Shown here: in pieces, positions 2,307-64,000 of the stretch
How positions within the stretch are numbered: the stretch's first letter is position 1
How the letters are laid out: every line of letters starts with the position of its first letter
Assembly: GCA_964496095.1 (NCBI GenBank)
Contig: CAZBWU010000005.1
Span: forward strand, 19,704 to 83,703
Direction: 5' to 3'
Length of the DNA stretch: 64,000 bases
Source of the DNA: an uncultured Gammaproteobacteria bacterium
GTDB lineage: Bacteria > Patescibacteriota > Patescibacteriia > Magasanikbacterales > GWA2-37-8
Notes under the pieces: model-generated
Seen by the model: only the letters and a program-made list of their open reading frames with translations
Databases searched by the model: none
What the model was told of the DNA's origin: nothing
Translations under genes and position numbers: made by a program

Positions 2307-3020
2307 ATGTCATTTAAACTATCAGCCACCACCCGCAATGTTAAAGGAGAAAAAATCAGAACCAGAACTGCTATTCCGGCTGTTGTTTATGGTATGGGCG
2401 GAAAAGCAACTTCAATCACAATTGGTTACGAAGATTTTGCGAAATTATATCGCGAAGCTGGTGAAGCTAGTTTGATTGATTTGTTTTTGGATGATAAAGA
2501 AGATGGTAAAGTTTTGATTCAAGACATTGCTTACGATCCAGTAAGTGACTTGATGACTCATGCTGATTTGCGCAGAATTGATATGAATAAGACTTTGACT
2601 GCGACTGTGGAGTTGCGATTCATTGGCGAAGCTTCAGTTATTAAGGAACAAGGCGGAACTTTGATGCGCAATCTTACTGAAGTTGAGGTACAATGTTTAC
2701 CAAAGGATTTGATTTCCCATATTGATGTTGATATTTCTGTTCTTAAGACTTTTGATGATTTAATTAAAGTACAAGATTTGCCAGTCCCATCTACTGTTAC
2801 TATTACAAGTCCTAATGCAGAAGATTTGGTAGCCAAAGCCACTCCAGCTATGAGTGAAGAAGAGATGAAGGCTTTGGAAGCGGTAGCTGCTCCAGTTGAC
2901 TTGAGTAAGATTGAATCTGCTGGCAAGAAGAAAGAAGAGGGTGAAGAAGGCGATGAAGCAGAAGCTGGCGCACCTGCTAAAGGCGCTGCCCCTGCTGGTA
3001 AAGATGAGGCTAAGAAATAA
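2307..3020 (+). CDS. rplY: 50S ribosomal protein L25 / general stress protein Ctc with a lysine/glutamate-rich C-terminal tail
   Basis: N-terminus MSFKL..TRNVKGEKIRTRTAIPAVVYG...ITIGYEDF matches the L25/Ctc N-terminal fold. Acidic/lysine tail. Confidence 0.8.
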   Translation: MSFKLSATTRNVKGEKIRTRTAIPAVVYGMGGKATSITIGYEDFAKLYREAGEASLIDLFLDDKEDGKVLIQDIAYDPVSDLMTHADLRRIDMNKTLTATVELRFIGEASVIKEQGGTLMRNLTEVEVQCLPKDLISHIDVDISVLKTFDDLIKVQDLPVPSTVTITSPNAEDLVAKATPAMSEEEMKALEAVAAPVDLSKIESAGKKKEEGEEGDEAEAGAPAKGAAPAGKDEAKK

Positions 3021-3054
3021 AGTTATATATCTAACAACTTTCATTAAATTAAAA

Positions 3055-3086
3055 AACAGGCTACAATGTAAAGAGCCTGTTTTTTA
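3055..3086 (+). terminator. rho-independent terminator after rplY
   Basis: Hairpin CAGGCTACAATGTAAAGAGCCTG followed by TTTTTT. Confidence 0.6.
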
Positions 3087-3101
3087 ATTATTATTAAGTC
3101 T

Positions 3102-4148
3102 ATGCCAAAAAATTATAAACTACTTTCACTGATAGCCGGCCTGCTTACTTTGTCTTGTTTTTTAATTGGTTATTTTATTGTGGGTTATTTTTCTCTTATT
3201 CAATTTTCTCAGGCTATGGCTGATAATGATTTTCTTGTTAGCGCCAAAAGGTATACTAATAGTCTAGATGGACAAGTAGTAAAAACCAAAAATGAAACAG
3301 TTTCGGCTGTGGTAGGGATAATGATTGAAACTCACCCAGATGCCCGTCCAATGATTGGATTCTCCAAAGCCAAGATTGTTTATGAAGCTCCGGTAGAAGG
3401 AAGCTTTACTCGTTATCTAGCCATTTTTGATAGCAAACAAAATGTGCCAAAAATTGGACCAGTGCGTAGTGCTCGGCCATACTTTATAGATTGGTTGCAA
3501 GAATATGGCGCTGGGCTATATATGCATTCAGGTGGTTCGCCAGAGGCTTTGAGTTTAATAAAATCTAGAAATATTTTTGATGCCAATGAATTTTATTGGG
3601 GCCAGTATTATTGGCGTGACCAAGTGAGATTTGCTCCGCACAATCTGTATACAAGTAGTGATAATTGGAGGAAAATTTTGGATAAGTATGGCAATAACAA
3701 AGAACAATTTGGTCCGGCCAAGGCTTGGAAATATACAGCTATCGTGGGTAAGACGATTGCCAGTGACAGTAAGTTAAGTATTGATTTTAATTCAAGCTAT
3801 GGCGTGATGTGGAATTATGATTCGAAGTCCTTGCTTTATGTTCGCAGTGTCAATGGCAACAAAGAAAAAGATGCCGATGGTGCCGGAGTTTTTGCTCGAA
3901 ATGTGATTGTGCAATTTACCGATGTACAGCTAATTGCTGGTGATGATAGTGGTAGAAGAACTGTTCAGACTCTTGGTGGTGGTAAAGCTATGGTTTTAAA
4001 AAAAGGAAGTATTATTAATGGAACTTGGGAGAAGAAAACTTTGACTGACCGTACTAGGTTTTATGATAAAAATCACAGAGAAATTTTACTCGCCCCGGGT
4101 AATACTTGGGTAGAAGTAGTGCCAAATGAGGCCAAAATTTCAGGTTAG
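3102..4148 (+). CDS. exported/membrane-anchored hypothetical protein, possibly DUF3048-like
   Basis: N-terminal TM/signal segment. Family assignment is from memory of DUF3048 proteins common in small-genome bacteria and is low confidence. Confidence 0.45.
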   Translation: MPKNYKLLSLIAGLLTLSCFLIGYFIVGYFSLIQFSQAMADNDFLVSAKRYTNSLDGQVVKTKNETVSAVVGIMIETHPDARPMIGFSKAKIVYEAPVEGSFTRYLAIFDSKQNVPKIGPVRSARPYFIDWLQEYGAGLYMHSGGSPEALSLIKSRNIFDANEFYWGQYYWRDQVRFAPHNLYTSSDNWRKILDKYGNNKEQFGPAKAWKYTAIVGKTIASDSKLSIDFNSSYGVMWNYDSKSLLYVRSVNGNKEKDADGAGVFARNVIVQFTDVQLIAGDDSGRRTVQTLGGGKAMVLKKGSIINGTWEKKTLTDRTRFYDKNHREILLAPGNTWVEVVPNEAKISG

Positions 4149-4993
4149 TCCTTCGTTATTTTAACTAGCCTGTCTAGTCCCGCCAAGTCTTTTTTTATTT
4201 CTATTTTTGCACCAGGTAATATTTGTGCAATTAAGTTTGAGATGGTTTTTGTTTGGGAGGGGTCTATCTCTAAAAGAAGGAGTAGGTTGTGGGGAGGGGG
4301 TAGTAATTTTATTTGTTTTAATAATTCTTCGTATAGGGTTAGGCCTTGTTTGTTTGCTACCAGTGCATTTTTTGGTTCTTTTTGAATAGACGGTTCGTTT
4401 TGAAATTGTTGTTCGGTGATGTAGGGAAGATTGGCACTTATAATAAGCTGATTAGCTTGCAGGTTGTAGTTTTTTAGAATTGGTTCAAGTAAATTGCCTT
4501 GTAAAAAATTTATTTTTACCTCATGTGTTTTTGCATTTTTTTTGGCTACTTGTAGAGCTGGTTTAGATATATCAATCGCAAAAGTTTGGGTAGGTTCTTT
4601 TATATTTTTCAAAATTGAAATTGGAATACAGCCACTGCCTGTGCCAACGTCAATTAAAATATTCTTTTCGTTTTTTGTTTTTAATTCGTTATTCAAAATG
4701 CTTACAACTTCTTCTACCATCATTTCTGTTTCTGGGCGGGGGATTAAGACTTTTTTATTCACAAAAAAATCAAGGCCATAGAATTCTTTGTGGCCAATAA
4801 TAACAGCGACAGAGTAGCCTTTTTTTCGCAGATAAATAAAGTATGCTAAAGAGATCTTTTCTAAAAAAGATAGACTGTATTCTGGATGTATAAGTATGAA
4901 GTTCTTTGGTTTGTGAATGCTTTTGGCAAGGAGAAGTTCTAGGTCTAAGTTGTCTAGAGAGCTATATTTTTTTTGTAATTCACGAATGGTCAT
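4145..4993 (-). CDS. prmC: release-factor glutamine N5-methyltransferase PrmC/HemK
   Basis: EFYGLDFFVNKKVLIPRPETE, VGTGSGCI (SAM motif I), NLPY (NPPY-like). Lies immediately downstream of prfA on the - strand. Confidence 0.85.
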   Translation of the reverse strand: MTIRELQKKYSSLDNLDLELLLAKSIHKPKNFILIHPEYSLSFLEKISLAYFIYLRKKGYSVAVIIGHKEFYGLDFFVNKKVLIPRPETEMMVEEVVSILNNELKTKNEKNILIDVGTGSGCIPISILKNIKEPTQTFAIDISKPALQVAKKNAKTHEVKINFLQGNLLEPILKNYNLQANQLIISANLPYITEQQFQNEPSIQKEPKNALVANKQGLTLYEELLKQIKLLPPPHNLLLLLEIDPSQTKTISNLIAQILPGAKIEIKKDLAGLDRLVKITKD

Positions 4994-24857: not shown

Positions 24858-25283
24858 CTACGGCGGCGGGGATGACCACAGGTCATCCCCAGTTATCGGG
24901 TCCTTCTCCCCGCTCGGGAAGTAGAGGATCTTGCCTGACTTCTCCTCCCGACCACGCCTGGAAGGGAGGGGGCGGAAGATTTCTTGCCGCCCGTGGAGCC
25001 ACTTGCCCGACGGGCAAAGTAGCCCAACGGCAGGACCATTGCAGTTCCCCCGTCGGCTTGTGTCCTCCTTCCCGTCAGGCCCGACCCACTCGCTTCTGCA
25101 GTTGCAGTAGCAGGTGGAGGGCGGGCCGCAGGGCGGCGACAGTACCGGCTCGTGGTCGCGGTGCTTGAAGACGACGATCTCGGTGGGGTTGGCAAGGGCC
25201 TTCTCCTTCGTGGTGTGGCAGTCGTGGACCACCACGCCGACAGTCAGAAGAATAGCCCCGACGATGGCGATGATTTCTTTCAT
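24858..25283 (-). CDS. small Cys-rich protein with an N-terminal signal anchor, encoded in a GC-rich island
   Basis: Only frame in the island with an ATG, a hydrophobic N-terminus (MKEIIAIVGAILLTVGVVV) and a downstream hairpin terminator (GCCCCGGCTTGTGGCCGGGGC at 24808-24832). Frame choice is uncertain because high GC yields long ORFs in several frames. Confidence 0.35.
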   Translation of the reverse strand: MKEIIAIVGAILLTVGVVVHDCHTTKEKALANPTEIVVFKHRDHEPVLSPPCGPPSTCYCNCRSEWVGPDGKEDTSRRGNCNGPAVGLLCPSGKWLHGRQEIFRPLPSRRGREEKSGKILYFPSGEKDPITGDDLWSSPPP

Positions 25284-25664
25284 TGTATCTAGCCTTCCCG
25301 CCTATTGGTGGAGGTGTGAGACACCAACAGGCGTATCAAAAATCGTTAAAATTTCTAATACGCATGTTGATGTCTTTCGCTACCTTTTAACAACGCTCTT
25401 TTGAAATGGGTATCTGCCTATTATATTAGGCTTATTACCACTTTCTCAATCGCCTATATGCCGTAAGCATAAAGACGATTGTTAAAAACAGTAAAATTTG
25501 TTAGTTAATTCAAGACTTTATCATCTTATACGGGATTTGTCAATCTTCTCCTTTTCTGTTATTATTTATCTAAATCTATAACATTTATAGGGGCCTTGCC
25601 CATATAATCTCATTTGCTCGAAAATGTCTCGACAAGTCAGACATTTTACTCACTCATTTCGATT

Positions 25665-28259
25665 ATGCACGAACTACCAAAGGTTTACGAACCTCACAAT
25701 TACGAAGATGAAATCTATAAAAAATGGGAAGAATCAGGGCTTTTTAACCCTGATGTTTGTGTTGAGAAAGGTTTTACCAAAAGTGACGCTGAGCCATTTT
25801 CTATTGTCTTGCCTCCGCCAAACGTCACAGGTACTTTGCATATGGGTCATGCCGCCATGCTGGCCATTGAAGACGTGATGGTGCGCTACCATCGGATGAA
25901 AGGCGACAGGACGCTCTGGGTGCCTGGTACTGACCATGCGGCTATTGCAACTCAGTCTAAGGTAGAAAAATTGGTCATGGAGAAAGAAGGTAAAAGTAAA
26001 TATGATTTGGGCAGGTCCGAATTTCTCAAACGAGTAGAAAAATTTGCTCAGGAAAGTCATGACACAATAGTTAATCAATGTAAAAAAATGGGTGCTTCTT
26101 TGGATTGGAGTCGAGAAGCCTATACGCTGGATGAAAAAAGAAATTTGGCTGTCCGCACCGTGTTTAAAAAAATGTATGATGACGGACTGATTTATCGTGG
26201 ACACAGAATTGTAAACTGGGATCCAAAAGGTCAGACTGTAATTTCGGATGACGAATTAGTTTATGAAGAAAGAAAAGCAAAATTTTATACTTTTAAGTAT
26301 GGTCCTTTTGAAATAGGCACTGCTAGACCGGAAACAAAATTTGGCGATAAGTATGTGGTCATGCATCCAGAGGACAAACGTTATAAAAAATGGAAGCACA
26401 TGCAAAAAATAACTGTCGAGTGGATTAACGGTCCGATTGAGGCGACTGTTATTAAAGACCCAATGATTGATATGGAATTTGGGACGGGTGTGATGACCAT
26501 TACTCCTTGGCATTCCCATGAAGATTTTGCCTTGGCTGAAAAATATAAATTAGACAAAGAACAAATTATTGATAAATCTGGAAAGTTGCTTGAAGTCGCG
26601 CAAGAATTTGCGGGGATGGAAATCGGCAAAGCGCGGGACAAGATAGTACAAAAATTAAACGCCAAAGGCCTGCTTGTCTCAGTTGATGAAAATTATGTAA
26701 ATCGGATTGCGACGGCTGAAAGAACTGGTGGAGTTATTGAGCCACAGATAATGGAACAATGGTTTATAAATGTAAATAAGCCGATTGAAGCTCGGGATGG
26801 AAAAACTTTGAAAGAGTTGATGCAAGATGTGGTAAAAAATAAACAAATAGAAATAGTTCCTGATCGATTTGAAAAAACTTATTTTCATTGGATAGATAAT
26901 TTGCGAGATTGGTGTATTAGCCGCCAGATTTGGTTTGGGCATCGGATTCCGGTTTGGTATAAAGGTGAAGAGATTCATGCTGGTATTGAACCACCAACTG
27001 GTGAGGGTTGGACTCAAGACTCAGACACTCTAGATACTTGGTTTAGTGCTGGACTTTGGACATTCTCTACTTTAGGTTATCCCGATCTTAACGCCGAAGA
27101 TTTGAAAAAGTACCATCCAACTTCTGTGCTTGAAACCGGTTATGATATTTTATTTTTCTGGGTAGCGAGAATGATTCTAATGACTACTTACACTCTTGGT
27201 GAAGTGCCGTTTAAGACGGTTTACTTGCACGGACTTGTACGTGATGAGCAGGGGAGAAAGATGAGCAAGTCTTTGGATAATATTATCAATCCGCTTGATA
27301 TGATTGCTAAGTATGGCACAGATGCGACGCGTTTGTCGTTGCTCTTGGGCAATACGCCGGGCAATGATATGAAATTATCCGAAGAAAAAATTGCCGGCTT
27401 TAGAAACTTTACCAATAAGCTTTGGAATATTTCGAGGTTTATTTTATCTCAGGTAGATGATAAAGAGCCAGTTATGACAATGGCCGATTCTTGGATTGTA
27501 GGCAGGATGGCGAAGTCGTTCGGAGAGTTCAGAGAAAGCATGGAAAAGAATCAGTTTTCAGTCGCAGGAGAAAGCCTACGTGATTTTACCTGGAATGATT
27601 TAGCGGATTGGTATTTGGAAATTTCCAAGATTGAAGGAAATAAGTCAGGAGTTTTAATGCTTATTTTAGATTTTATTTTAAAAGCATGGCATCCGTTTAT
27701 GCCTTTTGTGACTGAGGCTATCTGGCAAGAAATACATGAGGGTGGAAAAATGCTCATGGTAGAAAATTTTAAAATTTCAGAAGGCCTTTTGGAAGCATCT
27801 CCTAAAAAAACCTCAGTAAAAAACGAAGAAACAGCTTGGTTAGATTTCGAAGTTGTGCGAAACGCGGTAGTTGCTATCAGATCTTTGCGCGCCGAATATA
27901 AAATAGAACCTGTTAAAAAAATCACGGTAAAAATTAATTTTGGAAAACAGGAGAGCATAATAAGAGAAAACGAACATATAATTAAAGGATTAGCTCGTTT
28001 AGAAAAAATAGAATTTGTAGAGTCTGGCGCAGAAATTTCTTTGGATTTGACTGGTGCAATAGATGTAGAAAAAGAAAAACCAAGGCTAGAAAAAGAAATA
28101 GCTGAAATTAAAAAATATGTTTCTGGTTTGGAAAATAAATTATCCAATCAAGAATTTGTCACCAATGCCCCTCCAGCAGTAGTGGAAAAAGAAAAGGCAA
28201 AGTTGAGTGAAGCACAGGGGAAGTTGGAAAAGTTACAAGAACAATTAAATAAGATGTAA
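25665..28259 (+). CDS. valS: valyl-tRNA synthetase
   Basis: PPPNVTGTLHMGHA (HIGH) and KMSKS. Editing domain and C-terminal coiled coil. Start at the internal ATG. Confidence 0.9.
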   Translation: MHELPKVYEPHNYEDEIYKKWEESGLFNPDVCVEKGFTKSDAEPFSIVLPPPNVTGTLHMGHAAMLAIEDVMVRYHRMKGDRTLWVPGTDHAAIATQSKVEKLVMEKEGKSKYDLGRSEFLKRVEKFAQESHDTIVNQCKKMGASLDWSREAYTLDEKRNLAVRTVFKKMYDDGLIYRGHRIVNWDPKGQTVISDDELVYEERKAKFYTFKYGPFEIGTARPETKFGDKYVVMHPEDKRYKKWKHMQKITVEWINGPIEATVIKDPMIDMEFGTGVMTITPWHSHEDFALAEKYKLDKEQIIDKSGKLLEVAQEFAGMEIGKARDKIVQKLNAKGLLVSVDENYVNRIATAERTGGVIEPQIMEQWFINVNKPIEARDGKTLKELMQDVVKNKQIEIVPDRFEKTYFHWIDNLRDWCISRQIWFGHRIPVWYKGEEIHAGIEPPTGEGWTQDSDTLDTWFSAGLWTFSTLGYPDLNAEDLKKYHPTSVLETGYDILFFWVARMILMTTYTLGEVPFKTVYLHGLVRDEQGRKMSKSLDNIINPLDMIAKYGTDATRLSLLLGNTPGNDMKLSEEKIAGFRNFTNKLWNISRFILSQVDDKEPVMTMADSWIVGRMAKSFGEFRESMEKNQFSVAGESLRDFTWNDLADWYLEISKIEGNKSGVLMLILDFILKAWHPFMPFVTEAIWQEIHEGGKMLMVENFKISEGLLEASPKKTSVKNEETAWLDFEVVRNAVVAIRSLRAEYKIEPVKKITVKINFGKQESIIRENEHIIKGLARLEKIEFVESGAEISLDLTGAIDVEKEKPRLEKEIAEIKKYVSGLENKLSNQEFVTNAPPAVVEKEKAKLSEAQGKLEKLQEQLNKM

Positions 28260-30419: not shown

Positions 30420-32123
30420 ATGACACTTACGATAAAAGAAAATATTTTTAAATTGTTGAAATCCGCTGGAGTGGAAGGGGAGATAGAATTGACCTCTCCG
30501 CCAAATCCAGAAATGGGTGATTTTGCTTTTGCTTGTTTTGGTGTGGCTAAATTTTGGCAGATGAATCCAGCGGAAGCGGCAAAAAAAATCAGTTCTCAGT
30601 TCGAAGTCCACAGCTCCCAGATGATTGAAAAAGTGGTTGCCCTTGGTCCTTATGTAAATTTTTATCTTAACTCTGGTAAAGTAGCGGATCTCATTATAAA
30701 AGAAATTTTAAAAAAAGGAAAAAAATATGGCATAAATAATTCCGGCAAAGGTAAGAAAGTTTTGATTGAGTATCCTTCTAATAATACTCATAAAGAATTT
30801 CATATCGGCCATTTCCGTAATGTTTGTATGGGCAATGCTTTGGTTAATCTGTACGAACAAAATGGTTATAAAGTTTATCCGGTAAATTATCTCAATGATT
30901 TTGGAAATCACGTGGCCAAGTGTTTGTGGGGTTTACAAAAATTTCATAAAGATGAAAAGCCTCCAGCCAATCAGCAAAAATGGTTGGGTGAGATTTATGC
31001 GGAAGCGAGCGCGAAACTAAAAGAAAATCCTGATTTTGCGCCAGAGGTAGCTGATGTGCAAAGACAATTAGAAAGCCATGATAAAAAATTATGGCCATTG
31101 TTTATCAAAACCAGGCAGTGGAGTATATATCAGTTTGCTAAAATTTTTAAAGATCTGGGTGTCAAACACAAAGCGGTTTTTTATGAAAAAGATCTCAAAG
31201 CCAAAGGCCAGAAAATGGTGGATGAGTTGCTCAAAAAAGGTATAGCCACAGTCGGTGAGGGTGGAGCGATTATTATTGATTTGAGTCAGTATAATTTAGA
31301 TGTGGCGTTGTTGCGAAAATCAAACGGCGCTGGTTTGTATCTGACGAGCGATTTGCCGCTCGCGACGGAGAAATTCAAAAAATGCAATGCGGATGAAAGT
31401 ATTGTTATTACCGGTATTGAGCAAAATTTATATTTTAAACAACTATATAAAATTTTGGAGTTAATGGGTTTCAAGAAAAAATTAACTCATATTGGGTATG
31501 GGCTCATAAATCTCAAAGAAGGTAAGATGGGCTCAAGGTTTGGCAATGTGATTTTGTATGAAGATTTGTATGCGGATATTTATGAAAGCCTAAAAGCCGA
31601 ATCTGTAGAGAGGCATGTTGACTGGAGTGATAAAAAAATTAGCGCCAATGCGAAAATTTTGGCTTTAGCTGCCCTGAAGTTTGATATGCAAAAACATGAG
31701 GCTAATAAAAATATTGTTTTTGATGCGAAAGAGGCGACTTCGGTTGAAGGTTTTAGCGGACCATATGTTTTGTATGTGGTCGCGCGAATAAACAGCATGC
31801 TCAGTAAAGCAAGTAGCAAATCGCAAATAGTAAAAAGCAAATTTTCGTTACTGGATAAGCCGGAAGAAAAGCGGTTGGTTTTGTGGCTGGGCAAGTATGA
31901 AGAAACTGTGGAAAAAGCTTTAGCAGAATATAATCCATCTGTAATGACTCGTTATTGTTTTGATCTGGCACAGGCGTTTAATAATTTTTATAATAATTGC
32001 AGTATTTTAAAAGCGGAAACCAAAGATTTAATGTCTGCCAGACTATCGTTGTCTGTGGCCACAAAAAATGTTTTGGAAAGCGCTTTAGGGCTTCTTACTA
32101 TTGACACGGTTGAGGAGATGTAA
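30420..32123 (+). CDS. argS: arginyl-tRNA synthetase
   Basis: HIGH-type motif FHIGHFRN, class I core, DALR anticodon-binding C-terminus. 567 aa. Confidence 0.9.
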   Translation: MTLTIKENIFKLLKSAGVEGEIELTSPPNPEMGDFAFACFGVAKFWQMNPAEAAKKISSQFEVHSSQMIEKVVALGPYVNFYLNSGKVADLIIKEILKKGKKYGINNSGKGKKVLIEYPSNNTHKEFHIGHFRNVCMGNALVNLYEQNGYKVYPVNYLNDFGNHVAKCLWGLQKFHKDEKPPANQQKWLGEIYAEASAKLKENPDFAPEVADVQRQLESHDKKLWPLFIKTRQWSIYQFAKIFKDLGVKHKAVFYEKDLKAKGQKMVDELLKKGIATVGEGGAIIIDLSQYNLDVALLRKSNGAGLYLTSDLPLATEKFKKCNADESIVITGIEQNLYFKQLYKILELMGFKKKLTHIGYGLINLKEGKMGSRFGNVILYEDLYADIYESLKAESVERHVDWSDKKISANAKILALAALKFDMQKHEANKNIVFDAKEATSVEGFSGPYVLYVVARINSMLSKASSKSQIVKSKFSLLDKPEEKRLVLWLGKYEETVEKALAEYNPSVMTRYCFDLAQAFNNFYNNCSILKAETKDLMSARLSLSVATKNVLESALGLLTIDTVEEM

Positions 32124-32220
32124 TACTTTCATATTGGCTGCATGTTTGTTCTCGCCAAATTTTGGTTGTGAGCAGTGCAAGCCACGAATATAAACAATCT
32201 CAAAGAAAAAGAGGTGTGGC

Positions 32221-33235
32221 TATGGACGCCTTGAAGATCTGGTTCTGGAATAAGGGACGGCAGTTTGGTTTGATTCTGCTGGAATTTCTCTGGAAGTTGG
32301 TTGTCCGGTTTTTTTATCAGCCGGATTTCATTTTCCTGGTCTACGGCCAGTTGCGCCACAAGCGCGCTTGCTGGTCTGAGAGAACGGAGAAGCGTATCGG
32401 TCTCTGTGGTTTGATCAGCTTCATCAGATGGAAGAAGGACGGTGTTCGGTTTCGTGGTTTGGTGATAGCTTCCACGGTGAGTATGGAAGAATTTAGCGAG
32501 CGACCCGAACTCGCTTTGAGAGTTGTTGAAGAAGTGAAAAAGCGCTTTCCTAAGGTGAAGGCAATTGCTTTGGCCGGGCAGCTTCCTGGATGGATTGCTC
32601 GTGCATCGGGACAAGCCCCAGTCACACCTTGTGTTGGTGGAAGTCTTGGAACTTGCTTTGCTGTAGGGCGGGCGGTATTTGAACTCTCTTCTTCTTTGAG
32701 GGGTGTGTCGGATCAACATGTTGTTGTGGTGGGTGGAGCTGGTCATACCGGTTCTCAGGTGGTTGAGGTCTTGTCGGTCGCAAATCGATTTAGAATCACT
32801 GCCTTTGATCGCCGTTTGTCAGAAAATGTCACAGGCAATGTTCGTCAAACCAGTGACCCTGTTTGTTTGGAGAGCGCCTCTCTAGTGGTGGTGCTTACTG
32901 CCCAAGGAGATGAAGTTAGATCTCTTGTTCCAAACATTAGGCGGGGAACGATTGTTGCTGATGACACGCACCCCATGATTGGTTCGCGCGTGCGCAAGGC
33001 GCTTTTTGACCAGGGTGCAAAGCTCGCCAAGATCACGATGACTGCAAATCCCTCCTTGAGGATGTTTCCGCGTCTTCCCGACTTCAAGTCGGATGATATT
33101 CCCGGGTGCCTTCTTGAGGCTTTGGTGGTTTCTGTGAGGGGGCGTGAAGTTCTCTCTAGCCAGTCAAGATTTGATGCGGAAGCTGAGCGTTTGGGGTTCA
33201 AGCCTAAGTTGGGGGATCACCCAACGTATTCGTAG
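32221..33235 (+). CDS. NAD(P)-binding Rossmann-fold protein of unknown function in a moderately GC-enriched segment
   Basis: AAGAGG Shine-Dalgarno before ATG 32221 (ORF track starts at TTG 32162). VVVVGGAGHTGSQVV GxGxxG dinucleotide-binding motif. Local GC is clearly above the flanks. Confidence 0.45.
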
Positions 33236-47709: not shown

Positions 47710-49016
47710 ATAAAGTAATTATGTTAAAAAATCTTATCCAAACAATTATTAGAGATTTGGCCAAAAGAATCTTGGCCAAGTATAAACCCGATGTGATTGG
47801 TATTACGGGTTCGGTTGGTAAGACTTCCAGCAAAGAAGCCATTGCTTATGTTTTGCAGAGTAAATTTTCTGTGCGTCGCACTCTCAAAAATTATAACAAT
47901 GAAATTGGTCTGCCCCTCACAATTTTCGGCATAGAAAAATCTCCAGGGAAATCAATTCTTGGTTGGTTGGGAGTAATTTGGAAAGCCAAAAAATTACTTT
48001 TAGCTAGAGATAATAATTATCCGGAAGTTTTGGTTTTAGAAATGGGTGCTGATAAGCCAGGGGATATAGAGTATCTAACCGAGATTGCGCCGTGTAAAGT
48101 CGGCGTGCTGACTTTTATTTCTCACGCTCATACTGAATTTTTCAAAACCATTAAAAAAATCTCACAAGAAAAAAGAATTATTATCTCTCATCTTAAACAG
48201 GATGGTTTTGCCGTGATGAATTTTGACAATGAAATGGTTATGCAAAATATCGGTGCGACCAAAGCCGAAGTTCTTACCTATGGTTTCAAAGACGGGGCTG
48301 ATTTGCGAGCAACAGATGTAAACCTAATCAAAGACGCTCAGACCGGCTGGCCATCAGGCTTGAATTTTAAAGTTCTATACAAAGGCAATGTGGTGCCGGT
48401 ATTTTTGCCAGGTGTAATTTCTAAGTCTTCTATTTCGGCAGCTTTAGCCGGGTTGGCTGTTGGTACTATTTTTGGGGTAAATCTGGTAGAGGGGTCTCAA
48501 GCGCTTAGTAAGTTACAGCGTCTTCCTGGCCGTATGCGCCTCATTGAGGGTGTTAAGCACACGCTGGTGGTAGATGACTCGTATAGTTCTAGTCCAGAGG
48601 CAGCCAAGACCGCTCTAGAGGCTCTAGTGCAGATTGAGGTCAGACCGGAGTCTCGTCGTTATGCGGTTTTGGGTGATATGTTAGAGTTAGGTACAGAGAC
48701 CGAAAACGCCCATCGTGAGCTCGGTTTTAAAGTCGCTGAATTAGGGCTTGATTTTCTTATTACTGTCGGCGAGGCGGCCAAGCATATTGCTCAAGCTGCC
48801 AAAGAAGCGGGGATGGAAGAAAATAAGATCGCCTCTTTTGCTAACGGTGGTGAAGCGGGCAGATTTTTGCAAGAAAAAATAAAAGAGGGGGATTTAGTTC
48901 TTGTTAAAGGTTCTCAAGGTATTCGTTTAGAGAGAGTGGTTAAAGAAATAATGGCCGAACCTTTGCAAGCTTCCAACCTTTTGTGTCGTCAAGAACAGTC
49001 TTGGCTTGAAAAATAA
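47703..49016 (+). CDS. murF: UDP-N-acetylmuramoyl-tripeptide--D-alanyl-D-alanine ligase
   Basis: Mur ligase P-loop IGITGSVGKTSSKE. Middle and C-terminal Mur ligase domains. MurF-like N-terminus. Confidence 0.8.
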   Translation: MVNKVIMLKNLIQTIIRDLAKRILAKYKPDVIGITGSVGKTSSKEAIAYVLQSKFSVRRTLKNYNNEIGLPLTIFGIEKSPGKSILGWLGVIWKAKKLLLARDNNYPEVLVLEMGADKPGDIEYLTEIAPCKVGVLTFISHAHTEFFKTIKKISQEKRIIISHLKQDGFAVMNFDNEMVMQNIGATKAEVLTYGFKDGADLRATDVNLIKDAQTGWPSGLNFKVLYKGNVVPVFLPGVISKSSISAALAGLAVGTIFGVNLVEGSQALSKLQRLPGRMRLIEGVKHTLVVDDSYSSSPEAAKTALEALVQIEVRPESRRYAVLGDMLELGTETENAHRELGFKVAELGLDFLITVGEAAKHIAQAAKEAGMEENKIASFANGGEAGRFLQEKIKEGDLVLVKGSQGIRLERVVKEIMAEPLQASNLLCRQEQSWLEK

Positions 49017-51147: not shown

Positions 51148-53073
51148 ATGTCAGACGAAGAAAAAGTACAACCAAATTTGGTTGGTGCTAAGAAAAATTA
51201 TATAAAGAAAGCGCTTGTGGCTATTGGCGCTATTTTGATTTTAGTAGCTGTATTTTTTGGCGTTTCGTTTGTTTACGGTAAAGTCTATAAGGATAAAGTT
51301 TTCCCCGGAGTTTATTTGGGACAGTATCATGTAGGTGGAATGACTCAGATAGAAGTCCGAGACATGGTTGAGAATTTTAATAATAGAATTGCCAAAGAAA
51401 GTTTGGATTTTAATTTCAAAAAAGATGATCAGTCTATTAGTTTTAAACTGGATGTTATTTCAGCTGAGGATAGTTCTGTAGAAATGGTAAAAGTAAACAG
51501 TGAGACTACTGCCGCCAAACTCTTGGCTGTAGGCCGACAGGATGGTTTTTGGAACAGTTTATGGCAACCGTTATATTATCGTTTGATTTCTAATCGTTTT
51601 GATTCGGCTGATGTTGTTCTTGAAGACAAGCTTATCTCAAACTTGCAGAATTATATGTTGGCTTTTGGCAATCCGCCTCGCAATGCCAATATTAAAATTA
51701 CCGACTTGATGCCGCTGTCTTATACTATAGAATCGGAAAAAAGTGGTTTTATTTTTGACTACGATGAATTAAAAAATAAAATAGTAAGTCAAATCTCAGA
51801 ATTATCGCTCAAGCCAATTGCTATAACTAAAAAAGAATTTAAACCGGATGTTGTGGTGTCTGATTTAGAACCACTCAAAAGCAAGTTGGCTGAAGTTTTA
51901 AATTATGGCAATTTAGGATTAAATTATACTGATCCTCAAACAGCGGTAAAACGTGACTGGAGCATTGGTCCAACTATTTATACCGATTGGCTGGAAGTGC
52001 GAAAAGAAAACGGTGAGCCGATTTTTGCCTTAAACAAAGAAAAAGTAAAAACCTATTTAGAAACCATAGCTCCATTTGTAAATACTCCAGCCAAAGACGC
52101 AAAGTTTGTGATGGAAGGGGAAAAAGTCAAAGAGTTTCAAGCAAACCAGTCAGGGTTAAGTTTGAATGAAGAAAAGACCTACCAGGATCTTGATTCTGTT
52201 TTTAGAGATAGAAATTATCGTCCGGCTGATTTGGCCAAAACAGTCACTGTCTCTGTAGATATTGTTGAGCCAAATATTGTCATGGCTAATATCAATAATC
52301 TCGGTATTATGGAAAAAATAGGTACAGGCTACTCTACCTTTAAAGATAGTCACACCAATAGAATCAAAAATATTGCTAATGCTGTAAAAAGATTAAATGG
52401 TGTTTTGATAAAACCAGGTGAAGAATTTTCTGCCAATAAATATGCTGGTCCATATACCAAAGAAAATGGATTTTTACCGGAACAAGTAATCAAAGGCAAT
52501 GAAATAAAGCCAGAAATTGGTGGGGGTATGTGTCAGATTGGGACGACTTTGTTTAGGACCGCGATGAATTCCGGTATGCCCATTACCGAACGTCGTAATC
52601 ATTCCTTGGTAGTTGGTTACTATGCCGATCCAGTTAACGGTAATCCTGGCACGGACTCTACGCTTTACGAGCCAAGCGTCGATTTTAAATTTATGAATGA
52701 TACCGGTAATTACTTGCTTTTACAGACTTCAATTGATTATGCAAAACAACAATTGGTGTTTACCTTGTGGGGTAAAAGCGATGGTCGTAGTGGATCCTAT
52801 ACTCATCCAATTGTCAGTAAATGGATACCAGCAGGCGAACCTCAAAATATTGTCTCCAATACTTTGAAACCAGGAGAAACAAAATGTCAGGCTGCATTCC
52901 GTGGGGCGGTTGCTTCTTTTGTCTATACTCGTTTTACTTCTACGACTGAAAAAATAGAAAGAGTCTTCGATAGTTATTATAGGCCGTTGCCAAAAATTTG
53001 TATGGTCGGCGCTTCTGCATCTACCAGTACTCCTGGTTCTGATGTGCCTTTGGACTTGGGAGAAGGGAATTAG
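51148..53073 (+). CDS. VanW domain-containing protein with an N-terminal TM anchor
   Basis: VanW core GGGMCQIGTTLFRTAMNSGMPITERRNHS. Confidence 0.7.
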   Translation: MSDEEKVQPNLVGAKKNYIKKALVAIGAILILVAVFFGVSFVYGKVYKDKVFPGVYLGQYHVGGMTQIEVRDMVENFNNRIAKESLDFNFKKDDQSISFKLDVISAEDSSVEMVKVNSETTAAKLLAVGRQDGFWNSLWQPLYYRLISNRFDSADVVLEDKLISNLQNYMLAFGNPPRNANIKITDLMPLSYTIESEKSGFIFDYDELKNKIVSQISELSLKPIAITKKEFKPDVVVSDLEPLKSKLAEVLNYGNLGLNYTDPQTAVKRDWSIGPTIYTDWLEVRKENGEPIFALNKEKVKTYLETIAPFVNTPAKDAKFVMEGEKVKEFQANQSGLSLNEEKTYQDLDSVFRDRNYRPADLAKTVTVSVDIVEPNIVMANINNLGIMEKIGTGYSTFKDSHTNRIKNIANAVKRLNGVLIKPGEEFSANKYAGPYTKENGFLPEQVIKGNEIKPEIGGGMCQIGTTLFRTAMNSGMPITERRNHSLVVGYYADPVNGNPGTDSTLYEPSVDFKFMNDTGNYLLLQTSIDYAKQQLVFTLWGKSDGRSGSYTHPIVSKWIPAGEPQNIVSNTLKPGETKCQAAFRGAVASFVYTRFTSTTEKIERVFDSYYRPLPKICMVGASASTSTPGSDVPLDLGEGN

Positions 53074-53088
53074 TTGACCATTATCATT

Positions 53089-53260
53089 TGTCATCCTGAG
53101 TGGGGTTAACACCCCCGAAGGATCTCTGTCTGTTTTGTTCGTTGTCATTCCGAACGAAGGAGTTTTTACGACGGAGTGGAGGAATCCCTTAAACTTGGTT
53201 TTTGCAATTATGATGTGTAAGGGATCCTTCGACTCCGCTACGGCTCCGCTCAGGATGACA
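53089..53260. repeat. MITE-like repeat, composite copy F: left half of a B-type copy (53089-53130) joined head-to-head to a full inverted E-type copy (53144-53260)
   Basis: TGTCATCCTGAGTGGGGTTAACACCCCCGAAGGATCTCTGTC, then TGTCATTCCGAACGAAGG...GGAGGAATCCCTTAAAC...GTAAGGGATCC...CTCAGGATGACA. Confidence 0.7.
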
Positions 53261-53900
53261 GAAAAAAATCCACCCCCACCTCAGTAAAGAGATGGGGGTG
53301 GTTTAATTTTATTGGAGGAAAGAAACTTCCCTCCTGAACCGCACCCAAGAAGATGTATTAAAGATGAAAACGAGCCGAAGCCTGTTTGTCCCTCTAACAC
53401 ATCTCCATGCTTGTCGTGGATACGGGATGATACATGTTAGTCTTACTAGTAACTCTATCATGCACTACCCGTTTCCAGACTTGCTAATGTGCGCTTGTGT
53501 CTAATTATTAAAGTATTGTATTTTTGCCTCGTAGTAGTACCGTTTTAGGGGTTCATAACTCTTGTGGCGACTTTGCTTTTTAGACAACTGCGAATTATAC
53601 TATAAATTAATAAATTTGTCAAGGGTATGGAGGGGATAAGACCATTTTTTTGGCTAATTTAAGCGGAAATAGTACTAAAGAATATTATTGACAAAGCTTA
53701 ATTTTTATGACATACTCTGTTATTCGATAATTAAGCGAATAAATAGCTCTTTAAAATTCGATATGGTTCTTCGGTGCGAATAGAGCTTCGTTTATCATTT
53801 GAATATGGTAGTAGGAGTTCTATTCGCACTATAATTACAATCTCTCCTCGGGTATGCCGAAGAGGGATCTCACCCGAATTGAAAAACTGGAGGAGGTCGT

Positions 53901-54224
53901 ATGAGCAACAAGGAAGGGCCGCCTAAAGGGTGGAAAGAGGGTGTCTTCGAGCAAATCGATGCCGAGGAGGAAGATGATGCGCTGGATCGATGGGACAGAG
54001 GCCTGCCGCTTACAGCAGCACAAGAGGCCATTGTCCAGCGGTATAGGACTATGGTGCACAGGATGAGAAGTCTCCCCCCTGTGGAACCGCCTGTTGGATG
54101 GGAGGCGCGCGCTCGCGCCCGGTTCCGCAACGCTCGTGCCCGCGAGCGCCGCCGCATGCTGGCCGTGTGCGCTGTTCTCGTCTTCATCGCCGTTGCGGCG
54201 GCATTCGTGGTGGTCGGCCGTTAG
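53901..54224 (+). CDS. small tail-anchored membrane protein encoded in a GC-rich island
   Basis: GGAGGAGG Shine-Dalgarno 4 nt upstream. Acidic N-terminal domain, an RARARFRNARARERRR basic stretch, then C-terminal TM MLAVCAVLVFIAVAAAFVVVG. GC-rich codon usage unlike neighbouring genes. Confidence 0.4.
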   Translation: MSNKEGPPKGWKEGVFEQIDAEEEDDALDRWDRGLPLTAAQEAIVQRYRTMVHRMRSLPPVEPPVGWEARARARFRNARARERRRMLAVCAVLVFIAVAAAFVVVGR

Positions 54225-54377
54225 ATCGTCGTCACGACGGGAATCGGAGAATCATGTCCACGCTGGGCCACCACGGTCGTGAGATCGAGCTGGCCTGCGT
54301 CCGAAGAGGCGTTGCACTTGCTCAGTGCGCGCCTCACTCCGAATATTTTTTGTACTTTGTAAAAAAGATTGAGGAAT

Positions 54378-54410
54378 AAAAAACTATCCTTCTGTGGATA
54401 GTTTTTTATT
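54378..54410. terminator. bidirectional rho-independent terminator between the GC island and clpP
   Basis: AAAAAACTATCC-TTCTGT-GGATAGTTTTTT. Confidence 0.6.
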
Positions 54411-54423
54411 TTGTAGTTTGTTT

Positions 54424-55023
54424 TTATTTTTCAATCACCTTATCAATCAATCCGTAAGCCAAAGCTTCCTCGGCGCTCATAAAGTTGTCTCTATCAGTAT
54501 CTTTTTCTACCTGCTCAAGCTTTTTGCCAGAATGTTTGGACATTATTTTATTTAAATTATCTTTTATTTTTAAGATTCTTTCCGCGCGGATTTTAATATC
54601 ACTCGCTTGTCCTTCCATTCCACCCATTACTTGGTGGATCATAATTTCGGCATTAGGCAAAGCAAAACGTTTTCCTTTAGCGCCGGCATTAAGTAGAAAC
54701 GCGCCCATGCTAGCAGCCATACCAATACAAATAGTACTGACATCTGGTTTGATATATTGCATGGTGTCATATATTGCCATACCAGCAGTTACTGATCCGC
54801 CAGGGGAGTTGATGTACAACTTGATATCTTTTTCTGGGTTTTGGTTTTCCAAGAATAACAATTGGGCGATAATAACATTGGCGACATTATCATCTACTTG
54901 TGTACCCAAAAATATAATTCGATCTTGGAGTAAGCGAGAATAAATATCATAAGCGCGTTCACCGAAGGTAGTTTTTTCGATGACGGTTGGGATGAGGTAT
55001 TGGGATTTGATTTCTTCTTTCAT
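54424..55023 (-). CDS. clpP: ATP-dependent Clp protease proteolytic subunit
   Basis: [15 protein letters not shown]. Catalytic Ser in GMAASMG. His in MIHQ. 199 aa. Confidence 0.9.

Positions 55024-62583: not shown

Positions 62584-64000
<1,417 letters not shown>

Follow-up and report, generated by a model that had tools for sequence, protein, structure and literature searches.

The gap between clpP and vanW in the window (the whole 64,000-nucleotide stretch of DNA analyzed here) contains a gene for a structured noncoding RNA (ncRNA) on the minus strand. The gene has its own promoter and terminator, is conserved in relatives, has a conserved secondary structure, and is absent from Rfam. It is a new family of bacterial structured ncRNA, with unusually deep conservation for a CPR lineage and with phage-borne copies. 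No description of such an RNA was found in the literature searched, and there is no Rfam 15 match. On balance, we consider it probable that 53262-53666 (minus strand) is a single-copy gene for a structured ncRNA of about 327 nt that is modular and acts in trans, with an unpaired bulge as its docking site, and that 53678-53834 is an unrelated insertion.

CPR/Patescibacteria represent a large share of bacterial diversity, and they have tiny genomes and few known regulators. To our knowledge, almost no lineage-specific ncRNAs have been described for them, and none were found in the literature searched. The RNA has stayed at one locus over deep divergence, its sequence is better conserved than that of clpP, its promoter matches the consensus, and two phage lineages have copied it; it is therefore likely important to the cell. 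Its covariance model, its invariant 10-nt element, and its phage counterparts provide a testable handle on regulation by RNA and on the interplay of phages and hosts among organisms that so far cannot be cultured alone.

An earlier note on 53261-53834 described this stretch as AT-rich and ORF-free, and proposed that it could be an ncRNA, a decayed gene, or the junction of a foreign island. The stretch is two unrelated things, an RNA gene on the left and the left end of an island on the right. Because the island is missing in sister contigs, the left ~400 bp can be recognized as an independent gene and the right ~160 bp as the AT-rich leader of the island. The ncRNA proposal was correct for 53262-53622, except that the minus strand encodes the RNA and that the reported TTGACA is not its promoter. 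A foreign-island junction describes only ~53678-53834, which is absent from the sister strain and is part of the island; it does not describe the RNA gene. The stretch is AT-rich between 53500 and 53800 (27-35% G+C), but 53261-53450 has 42-46% G+C compared to ~38% for the window. There is indeed no ORF of 60 or more amino acids within 53261-53834; the longest have 50.

RNA Gene and Transcription Signals

The promoter of the RNA gene matches the sigma-70 consensus at every position (Table 1). A perfect TTGACA-N17-TATAAT is expected by chance about 1e-3 to 1e-4 times per 1.6 kb, and the arrangement of TTGACA, a 16- to 18-nt spacer, and TAnnnT followed by ...GUU is found in every one of the 35 homologues whose upstream sequence is available. 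Both this promoter and the role of the first hairpin as a minus-strand terminator were overlooked in the earlier note, although the hairpin itself (53270-53301) had been reported and is genuine, with 13 pairs of which nine are G-C. The promoter and intrinsic terminator of the RNA, conserved in relatives, are those of an independent ncRNA gene. Transcript start and end are predictions from promoter and terminator. The predicted 327-nt transcript has a minimum free energy (MFE) of -116 kcal/mol compared to -74 +/- 4.7 in dinucleotide shuffles (z = -8.8). One copy of the RNA is present in the 64-kb window (covariance model R1, 139 bits).

Two conserved motifs are located upstream of the promoter. 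In relatives, the more distal element has a palindrome-like version, TTGGCTAAAATTAGCCAAAAA. The other motif resembles a DnaA box and reads TTATCC(C/A)C in most homologues; it is an exact TTATCCACA in L118 and L120 and is inverted in L134. Its spacing to the -35 hexamer is fixed, at 9-10 nt in most relatives. The palindrome-like element may serve as an operator or UP element, and DnaA, or another factor, may bind the DnaA-box-like motif. Together, the two motifs suggest transcription-factor control.

Table 1. Features of the RNA gene and the adjacent island (window positions; hairpin numbers follow the earlier note).
Feature	Position	Strand	Description
Upstream conserved element	53644..53666	-	Half-palindrome and A-tract CGCTTAAATTAGCCAAAAAAA; from alignment of the upstream regions of 36 homologues
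DnaA-box-like motif	53631..53639	-	TTATCCCCT; 8 nt upstream of the -35 hexamer
Sigma-70 promoter	53594..53622	-	TTGACA-17 nt-TATAAT, 12/12 consensus; from sequence
Predicted ncRNA transcript	53262..53588	-	~327 nt; start taken as G53588 (GUUGUC...), end as the U-run
Variable 5' domain	53497..53588	-	Closed by helix P1 (GUUGUCUAA / UUAGACAC); MFE folds of 35 homologues
Variable middle hairpin	53427..53465	-	Preceded by semi-conserved GGRUNU
H1, 5' strand	53417..53425	-	CCGUAUCCA; RNAalifold
Invariant 10-nt bulge	53407..53416	-	CGACAAGCAU; faces single U53348
Long hairpin Pb	53349..53406	-	Base GGAG/CUUC, apex GGC-UUCG-GCU
H1, 3' strand	53339..53347	-	UGGGUGCGG; RNAalifold; consensus partner UGGRURCGG
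Hairpin Pc (hairpin 2)	53314..53334	-	All 35 tails have it; stem sequences vary widely
A-rich single-stranded linker	53302..53313	-	AAUAAAAUUAAA; 9-13-nt A-rich spacer in homologues
Intrinsic terminator (hairpin 1) and U7	53262..53301	-	Stem sequence differs in homologues, pairing kept
Strain-specific island	53678..54372	+	~700 bp, between clpP and the RNA gene; outside the RNA gene
Island promoter-like site	53688-53716	+	TTGACA-17-CATACT
Island 5'-UTR hairpin (hairpin 3)	53774-53829	+	
G+C-rich orphan ORF	53901-54224	+	107 aa, C-terminal hydrophobic stretch

Between the vanW stop and the RNA terminator (53080-53260) are composite inverted repeats of the GTCATCCTGAG...GAAGGATCTC type, and a partial unit of this type occurs again inside the adjacent island (53840-53871). 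Similar repeat units are found beside the RNA gene in relatives, downstream of it in L107 and upstream in L111 and L132. Contigs L002 and L003 end exactly at composite inverted repeats.

Synteny and Conservation

By the names of its ClpP relatives, the window belongs to Candidatus Magasanikbacteria (Patescibacteria/CPR). Loci of relatives were fetched via ClpP variants (82-95% identity). Every one of these that reaches the site has the gene order SMC, DHH, ClpP, a gene-free gap of 430-600 bp, convergent VanW, and HSP20, and in each of them nhmmer detects the RNA in this gap (E 1e-14 to 1e-89). Comparison of the syntenic site in related genomes, which the earlier note had suggested, located a conserved RNA and no protein gene. 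A metagenome scan with the most conserved 22-mer identified 26 further contigs with the same synteny wherever flanks are present, and the synteny holds down to 32% VanW identity. In total there are 36 distinct versions of the RNA, ranging from 220 to 450 nt, plus one distant version (L016). Two much longer members, L106 and L130, reach about 445 nt; in L106 the CCCGUAUUCC segment occurs twice, the second time in degenerate form, suggestive of an internal duplication.

The RNA is conserved beyond the level of its neighbor. Sister contigs L002 and L003, from two other samples, are 100% identical to the window over 53262-53622 compared to 97% for clpP DNA. Identities of the 92-nt core and of clpP coding DNA were 98.9 vs. 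85.2%, 97.8 vs. 78.5%, and 86.7 vs. 73.8%. A ClpP-based scan of species genomes led mostly to other phyla. Among 80 ClpP loci of other taxa, one further true homologue was detected, L016 (R1, 51.8 bits), and here the copy is again between clpP and a convergent vanW gene. The RNA gene is vertically inherited at a fixed locus (clpP and the RNA gene converging on vanW and hsp20) in Magasanikbacteria and related CPR.

The L016 contig (CAYPWV010000020.1) belongs to a MAG labelled "uncultured Gammaproteobacteria" and carries the CPR-type arrangement of clpP, RNA, vanW, and hsp20 together with the RNA itself; the taxonomic label of this MAG is probably wrong. In this contig the RNA promoter sits within the loop of the clpP terminator.

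Secondary Structure and Covariation

The RNA combines variable and strongly constrained parts. The 5' domain ranges from 77 to about 290 nt among homologues and has clade-specific insertions. The sequence of its closing helix, P1, is clade-specific with pairing kept, for example GUUAUC/GGAUAAC and GUUACCU/GGGUAAU. At the 3' end, Pc, an A-rich spacer of 9-13 nt, and a G+C-rich terminator follow one another in 31 of the 35 tails, and their stems differ widely. Hairpin 2, here Pc, had been reported previously and is also genuine, with the extent given in Table 1.

H1, the bulge, and Pb were obtained by RNAalifold from a plain MAFFT alignment of the 3' cores without prior structural input, and covariance model R1 was built on the RNAalifold 3'-core alignment. 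In a 38-sequence alignment, 96.9% of the H1 and Pb cells form a standard pair, compared to 42-52% when the 3' partners are slid by 1-3 columns. Both sides have changed in 19 of the 31 pairs (shuffled mean 7.9), and none of 500 shuffles reach the observed values. Double or compensatory changes affect five of nine pairs in H1 and 14 of 22 in Pb. Within the Magasanikbacteria set, the H1 3' strand varies only by R opposite U. L016 differs in both partners of five of the nine H1 pairs, all of which remain Watson-Crick; the bulge and its GG.G/CUUC-U-UG flanks are unchanged. The 5' and 3' flanks of this copy lengthen H1 into a rod. Covarying secondary structure in the absence of a conserved reading frame is as expected for an ncRNA gene.

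The bulge and its flanking pairs are the only universally fixed part, and they are located between two helices that are free to covary. The bulge CGACAAGCAU does not vary among cellular and phage homologues, apart from the deletion of one C in L107. The invariance of block A among the 26 metagenome sequences is partly built in, since this pattern was the bait for their retrieval; it played no such part for L016, the phage copies, and the loci obtained via ClpP. No conserved intramolecular partner of the bulge was found across the family. A pseudoknot between the bulge and upstream sequence was considered and rejected, as CUUGUCG or AUGCUUG occurs only in some clades and z is near 0 in many members, including the window. 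The upstream GGRUNU was likewise set aside as an alternative H1 partner, being compatible over just 3-4 nt.

Phage Copies of the Core Module

Phage copies of the core were obtained from pattern scans of IMG/VR filtered with R1. Real R1 matches occur in two phage lineages only (41.7-45.6 bits, E about 1e-10). One lineage consists of L201, L258, and L259 (45.6 bits, 36% G+C) from three samples, and the other is L257 (41.7 bits, 50% G+C). Looser viral patterns gave only chance matches beyond these two lineages, and annotated GenBank phages gave no real match. Both lineages are genuine phage genomes encoding a DnaD-like loader, DnaB, HNH, a lysozyme-like protein, small and large terminase, and portal. 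In both, H1 covaries, the bulge is exact, and the module is located at the 5' start of the late operon.

The two lineages differ in arrangement. In L257 the module is followed by a 65-aa ORF, GroES, GroEL, and, further on, large terminase and portal; in L258 a 93-aa ORF precedes the module, which is followed by ORFs of 165 and 332 aa and, further on, small and large terminase. The L201-type copy has neither promoter nor 5' domain and extends from H1 through Pc-like and terminator-like hairpins, whereas the L257 copy is without Pc and without terminator. No integrase was identified near the phage copies by Pfam or PHROGs.

L257 encodes its own GroES and a short GroEL of 522 aa (2605-4638), and its hosts are probably CPR bacteria. 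Among cellular proteins, this GroEL is closest to the GroELs of Patescibacteria; relatives with 56-79% identity are present on other phage-like contigs of ~30-40 kb with terminase genes. A heat-shock cis element, as the position of the module before groESL in L257 might indicate, was rejected. Three related phage groESL loci do not have the module, and the chaperonin link is therefore not general.

Comparison With Known RNA Families

At the gathering threshold, Rfam 15 identified only 16S rRNA in the whole window. An Rfam scan had been proposed as a check in the earlier note, and it returned no family at the stretch. With permissive E-value cutoffs (10 for 52900-54500, 1 for nine homologue loci), no family was matched, including riboswitches and leaders. 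ARAGORN found no tmRNA, and the previous statement that tmRNA, RNase P, and SRP RNA are absent was borne out by Rfam and ARAGORN. A small protein is excluded because the small ORFs are interrupted by a 1-nt indel in relatives and no reading frame is conserved; the 50-aa ORF has no Pfam match, and the short ORFs are unconserved.

The RNA shares features with several known classes. Like 6S RNA, CsrB, RsmZ, and Ms1, it is encoded by a separate gene that is present once and has a very strong promoter of the housekeeping type, and like 6S-type RNAs it has a long irregular hairpin with a conserved unpaired element on the 5' strand between two helices. Docking of a global factor, the logic favored here, would be a further similarity. 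However, the Rfam models of 6S and Ms1 do not match, the loop is 10 nt against 1 nt, and most members have extra domains and their own terminator. The fold is not the rod with a large central bubble, unpaired on both strands, of 6S RNA, which binds the sigma-70 RNA polymerase holoenzyme and templates a product RNA; the consensus is a 10-nt 5' bulge against a single U, and only L016 is rod-like. The repeated GGA loops of CsrB are absent. H1 resembles group II intron domain V (CCGUAU...RUACGG), a 34-nt hairpin with an AGC triad, a 2-nt bulge, and a GNRA loop, but this assignment was rejected, as there is no Rfam match, H1 encloses a 70-nt insert, and the sequence is not kept in L016 and the phages. 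Type III toxin-antitoxin RNA (ToxI-like) was set aside because the RNA has no tandem repeats and no downstream co-oriented gene.

With Hfq/ProQ-type sRNAs of Proteobacteria, the RNA shares the possession of its own promoter, its size (220-450 nt), an unpaired element that is conserved, and a 3' module. An Hfq-type 3' module (hairpin, A/U-rich spacer, and terminator with U-tail) was found in 31 of 35 tails. Unlike the 5' or loop seeds of these sRNAs, the bulge is clamped between helices. The search of the window and flanks gave no target, and conservation of this depth and the presence in phages are atypical. As with raiA, OLE, ROOL, GOLLD, and HEARO, the RNA was recognized from a conserved, covarying, ORF-free intergenic region, and ROOL and GOLLD occur in phages too. 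It differs from these orphan ncRNAs in sequence and fold, has no Rfam match, is located at a fixed chromosomal locus, and is confined, as sampled, to CPR bacteria and their phages. Phage leaders acting on the transcription machinery, such as HK022 put and nut-type sites, resemble the module in its position at the start of the late operon in two phage lineages, but in the cellular form a terminator follows directly, contrary to what an antiterminator would achieve. A riboswitch or cis leader with a co-oriented gene was rejected for the cellular loci, where the terminator is followed by convergent vanW or hsp20; only in L257 does the module precede a co-oriented gene.

Proposed Function

A fixed bulge between covarying helices is a pattern typical of a specific docking site. 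Because no conserved intramolecular partner of the bulge was found, and no complementary site in the window or in about 200 kb of flanks, this pattern favors a docking RNA that acts in trans. In the reading we consider probable, a fast-evolving 5' domain is joined to a constrained 3' core (H1, bulge, Pb, Pc, A-rich linker, and terminator), and the RNA would act in trans as an abundant, stable molecule. H1 and Pb would expose the bulge so that a conserved partner in the cell could dock there. This partner is most likely a protein, and the RNA would then titrate it or serve as a scaffold, with the logic of 6S or CsrB; no RNA-binding protein gene is linked to the RNA. Phages would place the docking module in cis on late transcripts, which fits a host factor that is recruited or competed for.

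The main rival is a trans-acting sRNA that works by base pairing, which we regard as possible but doubtful. The bulge and its flanks, CCACGACAAGCAUGGAG, would be the seed for mRNA sites like AUGCUUGUCG, for example at a start codon, and Pc, the A-rich linker, and the terminator would form a chaperone-binding module. The seed-like element is single-stranded and invariant, its complement contains AUG, and the hairpin, A-rich 9-13-nt spacer, and U-tailed terminator in 31 of 35 tails form a 3' module that we take to resemble the Hfq-type sRNA layout; Pc, the A/U-rich spacer, and the terminator tail fit this reading as well as docking. However, complementary sites are absent from the 64-kb window, and no recurrent site occurs in about 200 kb of sequence flanking 24 loci, counting the window along with 23 relatives. 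Seeds are rarely located between two long helices with invariant flanking pairs, and conservation this deep, extending to phages, is unusual for an sRNA. Complementarity to 16S rRNA is within chance. The match in question is between the bulge (53407-53417) and the universal 16S segment CAUGCAAGUCG (62629-62641; E. coli ~50-62), which are complementary save for two central A.A mismatches. A likeness of the bulge to the Ser-Met codons of clpP is also within chance.

The phage copies allow two further readings, both of which we consider very unlikely. In one, H1, the bulge, and Pb would be a sensor or cis element (a riboswitch-like aptamer, an RNA polymerase- or ribosome-modifying leader, or a put-type antiterminator), and the cellular gene would be a stand-alone derivative. 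The L257 module as a 5' leader also fits a cis-regulatory element; the module is at the 5' start of the late operon in both phage lineages, and in L257 it is directly before the 65-aa ORF, groES, and groEL. Aptamers are commonly built as a hairpin with a single conserved internal loop. Against this, all 37 cellular versions lead into their own terminator and then a convergent gene, so there is nothing downstream to regulate. There is also no conserved alternative antiterminator or anti-sequestor pairing, related phage groESL loci are without the module, and no Rfam riboswitch or leader is matched. In the other reading, the phage copies would be attachment sites, with integration into the RNA gene and a 3' part carried to rebuild it, as with tRNA and tmRNA genes, and they would then be uninformative on function. 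An attP overlapping the 3' part of an RNA gene has the layout of the L201-type copy, which starts at H1 without promoter and 5' domain and runs to a terminator-like hairpin. The absence of an integrase near either copy by Pfam and PHROGs argues against attachment sites, as does the L257 copy, which has no Pc or terminator, and a split or duplicated copy beside a prophage was seen in no cellular locus. A non-functional spacer, a decayed gene, or a mere scar of island insertion is hardly credible, even though the stretch has no ORF and has repeats at one end and a foreign island at the other. The stretch is more conserved than clpP, its promoter and terminator are kept, its helices covary, a 1-nt indel in relatives breaks its small ORFs, and strains lacking the island have the element too. 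This explanation is refuted for 53262-53666 and is correct only for ~53678-53834 as part of the island.

A more far-reaching version of trans-acting docking is speculative, and we consider it unlikely. H1, the bulge, and Pb would be the recognition element of a CPR-specific RNP or of a polymerase- or ribosome-docking system, and the RNA would be an abundant housekeeping RNA, possibly under DnaA-box control, that CPR phages have captured for late operons under or beyond that control. If true, ultra-small bacteria and their viruses would have in common a regulatory RNA of a new class, with an essential or global role.

Adjacent Genomic Island

The right part of the stretch belongs to an island located between clpP and the RNA gene. 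In L002 and L003 the island is absent, and the clpP terminator abuts the RNA promoter region. Its absence from these contigs marks it as a strain-specific and recent insertion; it is present in two further assemblies. The plus-strand TTGACA of the earlier note is genuine and is located at 53688-53693, followed by 17 nt and CATACT. The third hairpin reported there was also recovered, with arms at 53774-53798 and 53805-53829 that are 76% complementary.

G+C content of the island is up to 75% in a genome of 38% G+C, and the predicted island transcript folds at z = -5.6. The island ORF has no homologue among 5.8 billion proteins, and the island DNA has no blastn match with plasmids or phages. The ORF could be an orphan gene, or it could be not coding at all. 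Other local G+C peaks (0.44-0.48 compared to 0.38) are located at 25001-26000, 32001-33000, and 48001-49000; none matches Rfam at the gathering threshold. At 54373-54412, a perfect 15-bp A/T-rich palindromic terminator is common to the clpP and island transcripts, and the sister strain has a different stem at this site.
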